Below are positions 14,445 to 18,372 of a stretch of DNA of 24,479 bases, piece by piece; the first letter of the stretch is position 1, and every line of letters starts with the position of its first letter. The notes under the pieces are model-generated. The model was not told the origin of the DNA, did not search any database, and worked only from the letters and a program-made list of their open reading frames with translations. The DNA lies in the NCBI GenBank assembly GCA_018303315.1, contig JAGVYJ010000031.1, positions 1 to 24,479 on the forward strand, read 5' to 3'. Source of the stretch: Candidatus Woesearchaeota archaeon (GTDB lineage: Archaea; Nanobdellota; Nanobdellia; Woesearchaeales; JAGVYJ01). The position numbers and the translations under genes were made by a program.

Positions 14445-14912
14445 ATGAGAGAAGTGATAAAGGGAAAAGTCCATCGGGTATACAAGCCTGTGAATGACGA
14501 CGAGTTCCTCGACCAGGTTTCTTTCATAGTTTTCATAATAGGATTCAACTATGCAGTGGTCAGGCAGCGCTGGCCGGAAATAAGCAGGGCATTCAAGAAT
14601 TTCTCAGTCAGCAGGGTTGCGGCAATGGACGCTGAGAAGCTGTTGGATGCGAAAGGCATGATAAGGAACAGGAGGAAAATAGCGGCAGTCATAGAGAACG
14701 CCAAATTGTGCCTTGCCCTTCAGAAACAGCACGGTTCTGTGCTGAAATGGGTTGCCAAACTAAAAACAAGTTATGAAAAAGACCCGTTGCTCAGCCCTTC
14801 CCTAAAGGAAGAGTTCCAGAGATTCAGGGGAATCGGGAAAACAACATCCGGCTGGCTCGACAGCATCCACATGGCAAAAGGAAAATATTTGGAATTCGAA
14901 TGGGAGAAGTAA
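14445..14912 (+). CDS. DNA-3-methyladenine glycosylase I (Tag)-like HhH protein, degenerate pocket
   Basis: AFKNFSVSRVAAM, GMIRNRRKIAAVIENAK, HGSV and FQRFRGIGKTT align with E. coli Tag FHQFDPVKVAAM, GIIRHRGKIQAIIGNAR and FKFVGTT. Confidence 0.8.
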   Translation: MREVIKGKVHRVYKPVNDDEFLDQVSFIVFIIGFNYAVVRQRWPEISRAFKNFSVSRVAAMDAEKLLDAKGMIRNRRKIAAVIENAKLCLALQKQHGSVLKWVAKLKTSYEKDPLLSPSLKEEFQRFRGIGKTTSGWLDSIHMAKGKYLEFEWEK

Positions 14913-14964: not shown

Positions 14965-15091
14965 CGCCGGCGCCGGGAGTTTCAACCAAGCGATTGTAAC
15001 CCTCTGTTAAACCGAAAAGTATTTGAACCCGGATGTCTTATTAGACACTAGGCTCTCAACCTAGCGGTCGACCAGATTGACCGTCGCCGGC
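14965..15091 (-). tRNA. Class II tRNA, anticodon GAG (nominally Leu) with Ser-type body and T-loop intron
   Basis: Minus strand folds fully: acceptor GCCGGCG/CGCCGGC plus G73; D stem GGTC/GACC; anticodon stem CTAGG/CCTAG with loop TTGAGAG; variable arm TGTCT-AATA-AGACA; T stem CCGGG/CCCGG with TTCAAA^T after intron removal. CCA not encoded. Confidence 0.92.
14979..15021 (-). other. 43-nt tRNA intron at position 59/60 with bulge-helix-bulge motif
   Basis: T stem, 3-nt bulge AC^T, 4-bp helix TTCA/TGAA, 3-nt bulge AA^T, inner helix ACT/GGT. Cutting after the second bulge nucleotide restores the T loop TTCAAAT. Confidence 0.88.
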
Positions 15092-15114: not shown

Positions 15115-15126
15115 CTTATTAAGCTT
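15115..15126 (-). promoter_or_regulatory. Putative BRE-TATA promoter of the tRNA gene
   Basis: Minus strand reads AAAG-CTTAATAAG ending 23 nt before G1. Confidence 0.45.
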
Positions 15127-15185
15127 TGACCATAAATTTCCGAAAAATTTGCGGAAGTTATGAATTAAGGTTATTGGCTAGAAAT

Positions 15186-16844
15186 TTAACGTAATTTGTT
15201 TTGAATATGTTCGTGTATCATCGACACGTTCAGCTCAAGCGCAACCACAGGCGTGGAAAGCTGCCATGACTCAAGCACCTCAGGCCTTATCTCCCCCATC
15301 ATGGCAAGCATCTTGCCGCCGAGCCTTGCCTCTGCTGCCCTGCCCGGAATGAAGGACATGTGCAGGCTTTCCCTGACAGGAACATCCTCGCCGAGGTTCC
15401 TGCATATCCAGCCAAACACCTGTTTTATGTCAGTAAAAGTCACCTCATTGCCAGCCCACACAAGGGCAAGTTTCTCTGTCTCCCGGACACCGCTCTCAGG
15501 CCCGGAATCCTCAGTAAAGCATCTCCCTATCTCGAACACCTTTTGCGGCAGCTCATTGTGGGTGTTTTCTGACAGCACACCCATCAGGCTTGGCAGCAGC
15601 CAGGAGCGGACAACATCAAAGTTCTCGTTCACTGAGTTGTCTATTGAGATATAGCTTGCCACTGTGTTCATCCTGGAAGTGAGGGACTGGGCATTTGTTA
15701 AATGGTATGTGTTTGCCTCTACAAACCCCAGGCCTATCAGGAAATTAGCCAGCGTGCTCTTGAAGGATTCCATTGCACTCTGCTGCGCAATAGTGGCCAC
15801 CTTCGGTATTACAGGAGTGAAATTCTCATAGCCAAATGCTATCGCTATATCCTCAACAATGTCAAATGGATGGAGTATGTCAGCCCTGTAAGCCGGGATA
15901 ACTGCCTTGCCATTAACATAATTCATGCCCATCCGCTGGAGAAGCTCCTTTATCTCGTGCACCTTCAGTTCGGTGCCAAGCATCCTATTAACATATTCAG
16001 GTTCAACCTTCATCTCGCCGGAGGAAAGCTCGGGGATTATCAGCTTCCTGTCTGCATACCTGACTTCCATGCTGTAAATCTGGCCTCCCATGTCAGCAAG
16101 CGTGGTTGCCAGTATGTTGATTGCAACAGTGAGTGTGTTCAGGTCAGGTCCTGTTGCCTCAAGGAAAACATCCTTTGTTGATTCTGTTATCTTGCCGACA
16201 TCATGGCTGTTGATAATAGGAGGCATGCTCAGCACAGAGCCCTGGCTGTCGATGAACACAGGAAATTCCTTCTGCTCCTCAATTATATGGCCGTATTTCT
16301 TCCCTGTCGGATGCCTGGACAGTATCTGCCTGCCGTTCAGAATCTGGTCGGCTTCCAGAGGCCTGAACTTTATCTGGTCTGGCGGCATCGTCGTGAACTT
16401 TATTGGGAAATGGATTTTGTCAAGCGGATATATCCCTAAACCTCCCTTTTTCCTGTTCCTGCAGAAGGTAACTGCAAGCTTTTCCTGCACCTGGATTATA
16501 TCCCTTATCTTTTCATCATCCAAAGAAAGCCCCTTGACTATGCAGGTCACTGCATAAGGCCACATCTTCAGGGTTTTTTCTACAGTGCAGTGCTCCCCGG
16601 ACTTCTTCACTGCATACTGCCTTATCCCCGGGCTTATGCCCATGAAAGCGGATAGAGCCCTTGCAAATCCCTGCTCGCTCAGCATGTCAGGCCTGTTGGG
16701 AAATATCTCCACTTCTATTTCCTGCTCGTCAATCCTGTCCAGGTCTGAGCCTATCATGAATATCCTTTCCTGGAGCTTGTCCAAGGGAATTTTTTTCCCG
16801 AGGAGCTTCTGCACCATAGCTGTCTTAAAGGTCACTTTGGGCAT
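15186..16844 (-). CDS. pheT: Phenylalanine-tRNA ligase beta subunit
   Basis: EIFPNRPDMLSEQGFARAL, IQVQEKL, SMPPIINS, PAYRADILHPFDIVEDIAIAFGYEN, VRSWLLPSLM, KVFEIG, MGEIRPEVL. Confidence 0.98.
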   Translation of the reverse strand: MPKVTFKTAMVQKLLGKKIPLDKLQERIFMIGSDLDRIDEQEIEVEIFPNRPDMLSEQGFARALSAFMGISPGIRQYAVKKSGEHCTVEKTLKMWPYAVTCIVKGLSLDDEKIRDIIQVQEKLAVTFCRNRKKGGLGIYPLDKIHFPIKFTTMPPDQIKFRPLEADQILNGRQILSRHPTGKKYGHIIEEQKEFPVFIDSQGSVLSMPPIINSHDVGKITESTKDVFLEATGPDLNTLTVAINILATTLADMGGQIYSMEVRYADRKLIIPELSSGEMKVEPEYVNRMLGTELKVHEIKELLQRMGMNYVNGKAVIPAYRADILHPFDIVEDIAIAFGYENFTPVIPKVATIAQQSAMESFKSTLANFLIGLGFVEANTYHLTNAQSLTSRMNTVASYISIDNSVNENFDVVRSWLLPSLMGVLSENTHNELPQKVFEIGRCFTEDSGPESGVRETEKLALVWAGNEVTFTDIKQVFGWICRNLGEDVPVRESLHMSFIPGRAAEARLGGKMLAMMGEIRPEVLESWQLSTPVVALELNVSMIHEHIQNKLR

Positions 16845-16845
16845 T

Positions 16846-18372
16846 TTATTCCAGCCAGAGCCTGGCTTCCCTCGTCTTTTTTATGTCGTTCTTGTACAAA
16901 TCCCTGAGGTCTGTTATTGAGTAGTAAGTGGTTATCACCCTGTCAAAGCCCACTCCCCATGCCAGCACAGGCACAGGCTCGCCAAGCAACGGCTCAACAA
17001 CCTCAGGCCTGAATATGCCTGCCCCTCCAAGCTCGAGCCATTTTTTCTGCACAGGATGGAAAACATCAACTTCCAAGGATAGCTCAGTGTAGGGAAAATA
17101 TGCCGGCCTGAACCTTATCTTTGGATAGCCCATTTTCGTGAAGAATATCTTCAGGTAGCCAAGAAGGTGCTTGAAGTTTACATCCTTGTCCACCACTATT
17201 CCCTCGCTCTGGTTGAATTCAAAAAGATGGCTCCAGTCCAGGGCCTCGTTCCTGAAGCACTTGCCGACAGAAAAATATTTTGCCGGCCATTCCTTAAGCT
17301 TTGCAAGCGTCTGCGCGGACAATACTGTTGTATGCGTCCTTAGCACGTTTTTCTCTGCTTCTTCAGGGCTCCAGTTGTATCGCCAGCCCAGTGAGCCGGT
17401 GTTCCCGCCGTGCTCATGCACTGCCTTCACAGAGGCAACCAGTTTCTTGTCAGGAAGCCTGCCTTTCGCCGGGCTTTTTAGGTAAAAAGTGTCCTGCATT
17501 TCCCTTACTGGATGGTCTTGGGCAGTGAAGAGGGCATCAAAATTCCAGAATCCTGTGCTGACTATCGGGCCTTCCATCTCCTTGAAGCCAAGCTCCAGCC
17601 ATATCTGCCTTGCGTAGGAAACCGCCTGGTTGACAAAATGCCGCTTCCCGGCAAAAATGTCAGGGACAGAGGCCTCGACATCATATCGCCTGAAGCTCTT
17701 TCCCTGGTAGCTTCCTGACTTGATGATTTGGGGAGTGAGCTTCTCCAGGACATCCTGGGCATCTTTCATTTCCGACTTCACTCTCTTCCCGAATTCGGTC
17801 AGGAAAACATTCCTGACCTTAACGGCACTTGACACAACTATGTCCTTCCTCCTCTTCAGGGATTCAAGCACCGGCAGCTCCTTGGCAGAAATTTCTGATA
17901 AAGATAGCGGGAATTGCTTTTTCAGGAAAAGCTCTTCAGGGAAATCCTGCTTCAGCAGCTTTTCCCCTTCCGGAGTGAGTGAGATTTCAAGCTCAGCCTT
18001 GCGCTTTGCCACAATAGCTTTTTTCTGCCTGAGCGCCCCCAATGATATCTGAAGTTCCTGGCTGCTCAGCTTTGTGCTGTCAGAAATTTCCTGGAGCGTG
18101 CCGGGAGTTTGTACTGCCTGCAGGAATCTTCTCTCAGGCAGCCCGGTTTTCCTGTAAAGCTCCCCATTTTTACCTAGCACTATGATATCCTTTACCTGCT
18201 CATCCACATGGACAACTTTCTTGTTCTTCAGCCACATCACAGCCCTGTTTATTTCAACATCCTGCAGGCCGGTTGCCCTTTGTATGGCTCCAATCAGCAT
18301 AGGATTGCTGAGTGCCTTCAGAATCTTCCTTTCATTCAAAGTCAGTGTCTCAGCAACATTCTGCGCATCCAT
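16846..18372 (-). CDS. pheS: Phenylalanine-tRNA ligase alpha subunit (archaeal type with N-terminal DNA-binding-like domains)
   Basis: FWNFDALFTAQDHPVREMQDTFY, VLRTHTT, FRNEALDWSHLFEFNQSEG, RPAYFPYTE, WLELGGAGIFRPE, WGVGFDR. Confidence 0.98.
   Translation of the reverse strand: MDAQNVAETLTLNERKILKALSNPMLIGAIQRATGLQDVEINRAVMWLKNKKVVHVDEQVKDIIVLGKNGELYRKTGLPERRFLQAVQTPGTLQEISDSTKLSSQELQISLGALRQKKAIVAKRKAELEISLTPEGEKLLKQDFPEELFLKKQFPLSLSEISAKELPVLESLKRRKDIVVSSAVKVRNVFLTEFGKRVKSEMKDAQDVLEKLTPQIIKSGSYQGKSFRRYDVEASVPDIFAGKRHFVNQAVSYARQIWLELGFKEMEGPIVSTGFWNFDALFTAQDHPVREMQDTFYLKSPAKGRLPDKKLVASVKAVHEHGGNTGSLGWRYNWSPEEAEKNVLRTHTTVLSAQTLAKLKEWPAKYFSVGKCFRNEALDWSHLFEFNQSEGIVVDKDVNFKHLLGYLKIFFTKMGYPKIRFRPAYFPYTELSLEVDVFHPVQKKWLELGGAGIFRPEVVEPLLGEPVPVLAWGVGFDRVITTYYSITDLRDLYKNDIKKTREARLWLE

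Follow-up and report, generated by a model that had tools for sequence, protein, structure and literature searches.

A tRNA gene that carries 43 extra nucleotides in its T-loop raises three linked questions: whether the insert is an intron that is spliced by proteins, which enzyme could remove it at this position, and what kind of tRNA would result. The gene lies in a Woesearchaeal assembly of 746 kb (76 contigs, 76% complete, 48.6% GC), on contig C63, the whole of which (24,479 nt) is the window analyzed here.

The sites involved are not new. Indeed, 53/54 and 59/60 are among the known non-canonical positions of archaeal tRNA introns (PMC4090602). In ARMAN-2, a 59/60 intron of pre-tRNA-Cys is cut in vitro by the epsilon2 enzyme of that organism, and tRNA-Pro has introns at both 53/54 and 59/60, with a strict motif (PMC3239211). 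Views of what the splicing endonuclease EndA can do at such sites are on record: a BHB motif is said to be recognized at any position, only relaxed motifs requiring an (alpha-beta)2 or epsilon2 enzyme (PMC6379350); Fujishima et al. assume that a typical alpha4 enzyme works at the canonical position only (PMC3239211). The published model associates alpha4 enzymes devoid of specificity loops with genomes in which few tRNA genes are disrupted (PMC3239211, PMC5829648). Kaneta et al. included one Woesearchaeote in their survey, used tRNAscan-SE 2 and noted incomplete tRNA sets (PMC5829648).

In this report, we describe the interrupted gene and its splice motif, examine how widely the motif recurs among relatives, characterize the splicing enzymes of the genome, and consider the identity of the host tRNA.

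Results

A class II tRNA gene interrupted at 59/60

The gene is on the minus strand (127 nt as pre-tRNA, positions 14965 to 15091, read from 15091 to 14965) and specifies a class II tRNA with anticodon GAG, discriminator G73 and no encoded CCA. Its 5' exon (15022-15091, minus strand; 70 nt, tRNA positions 1-59) starts with one strand of the 7-bp acceptor stem GCCGGCG/CGCCGGC, continues with the D arm, an anticodon loop UUGAGAG and a 15-nt variable arm, and ends in CCGGG UUCAAA. The 3' exon (14965-14978, minus strand; U CCCGG CGCCGGC G) supplies U60, the 3' strands of the T stem and acceptor stem, and G73. Between them, at 59/60, lie the 43 nt of the insert (14979-15021, minus strand), which contains one strand of a helix h', an internal CGGUU...AAUCG hairpin and a 3' UGAA able to pair with U54-A57 of the T-loop.

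When the 43 nt were removed in silico, ARAGORN returned an 84-nt tRNA with anticodon GAG and a normal 7/5 cloverleaf, in which all four stems are perfect and the T-loop reads UUCAAAU. The analysis confirms a class II GAG tRNA gene interrupted at 59/60 by a 43-nt BHB-type insert, and both the location and the exact regeneration of TTCAAAT upon excision were as originally predicted. The predicted spliced junction is ...GGUUCAAAU|CCCGG..., and the product across it would read ...GGUUCAAAU-CCCGGCGCCGGCG(CCA). Four DNA runs held the identical intron-containing allele only, with no intron-less form and no variants.

The gene sits in a 273-nt spacer between ORFs ending at 14912 and 15186. It lies 95 nt downstream of pheS-pheT (15186-18372, minus strand) and on the same strand, and a methyladenine-glycosylase-like ORF forms the other flank. 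A promoter-like BRE/TATA element, CAAAGC UUAAUAAG (CAAAGC-TTAATAAG), occupies 15115-15128 of the minus strand, at -37 to -24 from the tRNA 5' end. Most other tRNA genes of the genome have a BRE/TATA of the AAAsCTTTAAAA type about 24 to 38 nt upstream; since the element of the GAG gene is consensus-like and stands at the usual distance, the gene is probably transcribed. The promoter element shared by the tRNA genes of this genome can be written AAAsC followed by TTTAAAA or TTTATAAA.

A strict BHB motif built on the T arm

In the pre-tRNA, the outer helix h is the T stem itself, CCGGG (15028-15032) pairing with CCCGG (14973-14977) over 5 bp. The central helix H consists of four Watson-Crick pairs between UUCA, which is T-loop 54-57 (15024-15027), and the intronic UGAA (14981-14984). 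The inner helix h' joins ACU (15018-15020) to GGU (14985-14987) by A-U, C-G and U-G, that is, two Watson-Crick pairs and one G-U. The 5' bulge is AAU (A58, A59 and intron U1; 15021-15023) and the 3' bulge ACU (A, C and U60; 14978-14980), all of these elements being on the minus strand. With two 3-nt bulges on opposite strands, a 4-bp helix between them, and h and h' of at least 2 bp, the motif passes strict hBHBh' criteria; the description made beforehand from the letters (T stem plus TTCA/TGAA helix, two 3-nt bulges, short inner helix) is accurate in each element. The layout mirrors that of a canonical archaeal intron, with the T arm in place of the anticodon arm.

Placing each cut behind the second base of its bulge predicts cleavage at 15022/15021 and 14979/14978, hence at 59/60. 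This rule, checked on canonical introns of the same genome, recovers those at 37/38 in tRNA-Gln, tRNA-Thr and tRNA-Leu. Because a U follows both cut sites, cleavage at 60/61 would yield an identical product; BHB geometry favors 59/60.

The unconstrained minimum free energy (MFE) fold of the pre-tRNA (-55.5 kcal/mol) differs from the cloverleaf-plus-BHB fold. Absence of a BHB from a single-sequence MFE prediction is expected for 4-bp helices between bulges, and we therefore evaluated the structure directly, which gave -44.9 kcal/mol; once acceptor stem, T stem and H were imposed, the lowest value was -49.7 kcal/mol. Since the MFE structure is another fold, thermodynamic prediction alone neither finds nor excludes the motif.

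Detection by tRNA finders and control for chance

In its unspliced form, the GAG gene was not called by ARAGORN, either by default or with intron search over the whole genome, and had no match to the Rfam tRNA model at the gathering threshold, at E<=10 or at E<=1. The expectation that default annotation would miss such a gene was thus borne out with ARAGORN in both modes and with the Rfam model. ARAGORN with intron search listed only 15 tRNAs in this genome. Several of its own intron placements were wrong and were not relied on; for instance, a gene on C56 (3088-3187, plus strand; locus L125) was reported as tRNA-Phe(GAA) with a 12-nt intron, and becomes a tRNA-Leu(GAG) with A73, G37 and a canonical 12-nt intron once the BHB rule places that intron at 37/38.

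How often would chance produce a restorable tRNA? We scanned the genome for strict hBHBh' motifs, spliced every candidate and submitted the products to ARAGORN, and did the same on the reversed genome. The numbers of candidates were similar (54,354 in the real genome versus 54,177 in the reversed one). Two otherwise undetectable tRNAs were restored in the real genome, the GAG gene and a tRNA-Ser(GGA) on contig C47, and none among the 54,177 spliced candidates of the reversed genome. Because standard finders miss such intron-bearing genes, tRNA sets of Woesearchaeota-type genomes show apparent gaps, and look incomplete though they are complete.

The tRNA-Ser(GGA) gene (C47:7167-7394, plus strand; locus L123) carries an intron of 143 nt at 59/60, whose motif again contains the UUCA/UGAA helix, together with an h' of 5 bp; the proposal to look for similar introns in other tRNA genes of the genome was thereby rewarded. 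This 143-nt intron is highly structured (MFE -68 kcal/mol). A scan with relaxed settings added tRNA-Ser(CGA) (C32:15199-15380, minus strand; locus L126), interrupted at 53/54 by a 96-nt intron whose motif is of the relaxed HBh' type, with an outer helix of 1 bp. Neither Ser gene matched Rfam, even in a 1-kb search space, and their long introns, tested as known small RNAs, matched no Rfam family.

Introns at 59/60 across the class

An initial BLAST of the pre-tRNA against 40 relatives matched in one genome, and pattern searches were therefore used instead. The narrow pattern GGTTCAAA-N(15-45)-TGAAANTCC was present in 253 of the 401 genomes that belong to the order, at most 14 times per genome and about 600 times in total, versus about 10 for the reversed pattern. 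Moreover, it matched 13 of the 34 genomes from other orders of the class. Judged by these patterns, putative 59/60 introns are a class-wide habit, and the GAG tRNA is no isolated case. Of the 33 cases that were fetched, 29 gave back a tRNA upon in-silico splicing, among them Ser, Arg, Pro, Leu, Glu, Ile, Lys, Asp and Thr tRNAs; a 37/38 intron is also present in many of these restored tRNAs.

The inner helix was examined in 63 distinct introns. At the three bulge-adjacent positions, in-register pairing reached 0.75, 0.62 and 0.75; sliding the partner strand gave values that were mostly 0.24-0.48, apart from 0.63 and 0.70 at one position each. Every position shows many kinds of pair, which together with the in-register pairing argues that h' is kept by compensatory change. 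In many single cases among relatives, however, the bulge-adjacent h' has only 0-1 bp or is offset by one base, so that the motifs of those relatives are relaxed.

Near-identical 46-nt introns occupy 59/60 in tRNA-Asn(GUU) and tRNA-Lys(CUU), both from a single genome, and in tRNA-Thr(CGU) from two further genomes (loci L103, L104 and L105 in G236, L106 in G071 and L036 in G171). Their presence in different tRNAs suggests, at the sequence level, that introns have spread between tRNA genes, and parallels the intron transposition of Thermoproteales (PMC4090602). As the T arm supplies h and half of H, 59/60 would be expected to act as a hot spot across the class, and near-identical introns to turn up in different tRNAs.

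The splicing enzymes

The profile PF01974 matched one EndA gene in the genome (C24:15206-15733). The 176-aa product has an N-terminal and a C-terminal domain (PF02778 and PF01974, respectively). A weak hit considered as a second subunit (E = 0.05) lay antisense inside a 680-aa ORF and was discarded as spurious, and no beta paralogue was found in the genome with either the PF01974 profile or the protein itself as query (E<=10). A single PF01974 match, in ORFs of 156-241 aa, was obtained for 58 of 60 relatives with a completeness of at least 97%. Close homologues are 63-70% identical and are named Woesearchaeota or Nanoarchaeota; length differences among 11 aligned homologues come down to Lys-rich N-terminal tails.

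By score, the best PDB match is the Nanoarchaeum equitans alpha subunit (3IEY_A), whose basic loop is absent from the query: the alignment has a 6-residue gap exactly at K93, K94, K96 and R97. In Nanoarchaeum this loop precedes the catalytic His (PMC3488258), and it is the L3 of Kaneta et al. (PMC5829648). At the corresponding region, 10 of the 11 Woesearchaeal EndAs have PGEDH and the remaining one PGQDH; none of those aligned here has the L3 insertion. Against the Sulfolobus tokodaii alpha subunit (2CV8_A), a 10-residue gap falls at the crenarchaeal loop (CSL). The ARMAN loop (ASL) occupies the same structural site as the CSL and lies outside the 4FZ2_A alignment. With Methanocaldococcus jannaschii alpha4 (1A79), the alignment is gap-free (residues 36-176 with M. 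jannaschii residues 31-171), and Y112, H122 and K153, a Tyr-His-Lys triad, are invariant in the 11 aligned Woesearchaeal EndAs. The protein has neither the two paralogues nor the three-unit architecture of about 395 aa that characterize broad-specificity types. By its sequence architecture, the enzyme is alpha4-like and loop-less.

RtcB is present in two pieces at the ends of two contigs (C50:3-1073 and C14:6483-6734), corresponding to profile positions 1-353 and 343-426. A break in the assembly is the probable cause of this split, with an intein or a gene in two parts as alternatives.

The gene, its motif, the recurrence of the motif and the presence of the enzymes are shown by the sequences; the following scheme is inferred where it concerns cleavage, ligation, the oligomeric state of EndA and intron portability. 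The BRE/TATA promoter of the GAG gene would drive its transcription. Within the pre-tRNA, the T stem would serve as outer helix, U54-A57 and the UGAA near the 3' end of the intron would form the 4-bp central helix, and a short intron helix would close the motif. The single alpha-type EndA, presumably a homotetramer as in M. jannaschii, would cut after A59 and before U60; RtcB would join the exons into UUCAAAU, and the intron would probably be circularized. The tRNA would thus contribute h and half of H from the universally conserved T-arm sequence, and any intron ending in UGAA-NN with an inner helix of its own could occupy 59/60 in any tRNA.

Identity of the host tRNA and its family

The host tRNA has G73, A37 and A8, and its anticodon duplicates that of the canonical tRNA-Leu(GAG) on C56. 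In this genome and in genome G158, G73 and A37 are common to all six canonical Ser tRNAs that were examined; A73 is common to the five canonical Leu tRNAs of the same two genomes, and G37 to both Leu(GAG) genes. Canonical archaeal tRNA-Leu carries an A73 discriminator, and G37 in CUN readers; the host tRNA has neither. These odd residues, together with an anticodon that duplicates Leu(GAG), make its role in translation uncertain.

Relatives of the gene were sought through the start of the intron (GTTCAAA-NNNN-TTNCGGTTT), a retrieval by intron motif that leaves intron-less members outside the sample. The family so defined comprises 25 loci in 13 of the 401 genomes (about 3% of Woesearchaeales genomes), and its features were read in the 24 loci that are readable as tRNA genes, L058 being at a contig end. 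All 24 are class II, with acceptor stems close to GCCGGCG, and have G73 wherever a 3' exon was found. The anticodon stems covary perfectly, and compensatory changes are also seen in the T stem and in h'. The original prediction that the odd tRNA is under selection finds support in these changes and in the consensus BRE/TATA, and the gene looks functional. Anticodons are GAG, CAG, AAG, CAA, GAA, GAU and, once, ACG; A35 is present at 22 of the 25 loci, whose anticodons are of Leu, Phe and Ile types; the other three are the ACG locus and two with unclear loops. Relatives carry these genes in addition to full standard sets. G158, a 100% complete genome, has a full standard tRNA set, class I Phe(GAA) and Ile(GAU) among them, and a GAA member of the family besides. 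Identities are 0.67-0.75 within the family, 0.59-0.67 to Ser tRNAs and 0.55-0.62 to Leu tRNAs.

In a group formed by L063 and L051 (both in G325) and L042 and L054 (both in G043), the 3' exon lies 90-140 nt downstream, with a non-standard 3' junction, except that the 1.5 kb fetched downstream of L063 contained none. These four loci may represent longer relaxed introns, or truncated or split genes.

Two structural ideas were dropped. An allo-tRNA-like 8/4 geometry is at odds with A8, which cannot pair, and ARAGORN draws 7/5. Pairing of the intron motif CGGUUU with the 3' strand of the D arm is inconsistent across family members, and an arm of a CGG/CCG hairpin is the better explanation of this motif.

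The PheRS/glycosylase neighborhood of the GAG tRNA is not kept in the relatives that carry the family, and no conserved neighbor gene emerged around family members in these relatives. A search for related loci with the neighboring PheRS beta protein retrieved only an unrelated bacterial locus. A TctA transporter adjoins the family tRNA gene in two genomes only (G325 and G386).

Discussion

A real archaeal tRNA gene with a protein-spliced (BHB) intron at T-loop position 59/60 is, in our judgment, highly probable, and splicing of this intron from the GAG tRNA is very likely. Could the locus instead be a tRNA pseudogene in decay, with a T-loop insertion that arose by chance, and be neither spliced nor functional? 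The redundancy of its anticodon with that of the canonical tRNA-Leu(GAG), and the unusual A8, A37 and G73, would fit such a reading. We consider it very unlikely, since the gene has four perfect stems, a strict BHB and a consensus-like promoter, since 13 of 401 genomes contain a family with the same type of intron, in which anticodon stem, T stem and h' show compensatory changes, and since the reversed-genome control restored no tRNA.

A different objection accepts splicing but ascribes it to an EndA of relaxed specificity, be it (alpha-beta)2, epsilon2 or a loop-bearing form, without which the intron would stay in place. The original prediction went this way, holding that a non-canonical site needs a broad-specificity endonuclease. 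In that form the premise is not supported: the motif is strict, and a strict BHB is said to be cut wherever it is placed (PMC6379350), so the 59/60 intron by itself does not imply such an enzyme. Of the relaxed EndA that it proposed, one part survives. The 53/54 motif of tRNA-Ser(CGA), with its 1-bp outer helix, and the bulge-adjacent h' of 0-1 bp in many relatives indicate that the enzyme may be broader than its architecture suggests, and loop-bearing alpha4 enzymes of DPANN archaea, with L3, have been linked to tRNA gene disruption by Kaneta et al. (PMC5829648). The typing that it recommended, however, yielded an alpha-type enzyme, from a single PF01974 gene here as in 58 of 60 near-complete relatives, with no beta paralogue, a 176-aa length, a gap-free alignment to M. 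jannaschii alpha4, and gaps at the CSL and at K93/K94/K96/R97. Dependence of splicing on a relaxed enzyme is thus conceivable but doubtful, even though some activity of EndA beyond strict BHB motifs may exist, as the relaxed motifs hint. As for the product, it might not be an ordinary leucine tRNA. It could be a class II tRNA, Ser-like or of a third type, by which CUY codons are misread, or a regulatory RNA, with T-loop splicing as a gate to its maturation. G73 and A37 are shared with the six Ser tRNAs, whereas the five Leu tRNAs have A73; the family is closer within itself (0.67-0.75) than to Ser or Leu, has A35 in 22 of 25 loci, and in G158 adds a GAA member to a complete standard set. Yet the identity rules stem from other archaea, and the family was retrieved by its intron motif, so that the sample consists of intron-bearing members; we regard this as a tentative possibility, on the doubtful side.

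A combined and bolder reading would see a third class II family (G73, with Leu, Phe and Ile anticodons) of natural missense or regulatory tRNAs gated by T-loop splicing, in a class that has heavily intron-disrupted tRNAs and a single loop-less alpha4-like EndA. We think it unlikely as a whole. If true, a loop-less EndA beside a heavily disrupted tRNA set would break the model in which EndA architecture and introns co-evolve.

Whatever the role of the product, a protein-spliced 59/60 intron is of a type already known and ordinary for DPANN archaea, and is very common in this group. ARMAN-2 (PMC3239211) is the closest parallel: also a DPANN archaeon, it has BHB introns at 59/60 and 53/54 in genes that standard finders miss, and its tRNA-Pro case is a strict hBHBh', as in the GAG tRNA. 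It differs in its 395-aa three-unit epsilon2 EndA with an ASL loop, compared with a 176-aa alpha-type protein without the known loops here, and in that cleavage was shown in vitro, whereas here it is predicted from sequence. The introns described here are also longer (43-143 nt) than those of ARMAN-2, and an entire class makes use of the site. In Thermoproteales (Sugahara 2008 and Fujishima 2010, as presented in PMC4090602), the 53/54 and 59/60 sites are likewise known, and similar introns in different isoacceptors suggest spread at the DNA level. These organisms differ by an (alpha-beta)2 EndA with a crenarchaeal loop, and the spread proposed here is centered on one site, with helices supplied by the conserved T arm. 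A 59/60 hot spot at which the BHB is half-built from the universal T arm would be a simple explanation for the spread of introns between tRNAs.

The host tRNA recalls the bacterial allo-tRNAs (Mukai et al. 2017, PMC5389517), extra tRNAs with a long variable arm and Ser-type identity features under non-serine anticodons, which have been proposed as missense suppressors or regulatory RNAs. Allo-tRNAs differ in that they are bacterial and have an 8/4 or 9/3 acceptor/T geometry, while the host tRNA is 7/5, archaeal and intron-bearing.

The likeness of EndA to M. jannaschii alpha4 (1A79), a single polypeptide of about 176-179 aa with the catalytic Tyr, His and Lys, is one of sequence. For this lineage, one small alpha-type EndA devoid of the loops credited with broad specificity seems to suffice. 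The published model of loop-less alpha4 enzymes counts against our explanation of the 59/60 intron, and abundant 59/60 introns combined with a loop-less, single-gene EndA were not found described in the literature searched. The loop and co-evolution model thereby becomes directly testable with one enzyme and two kinds of substrate from the same genome, strict at 59/60 and relaxed at 53/54. For EndA specificity, tRNA-Ser(CGA) with its 53/54 intron is a natural test substrate.
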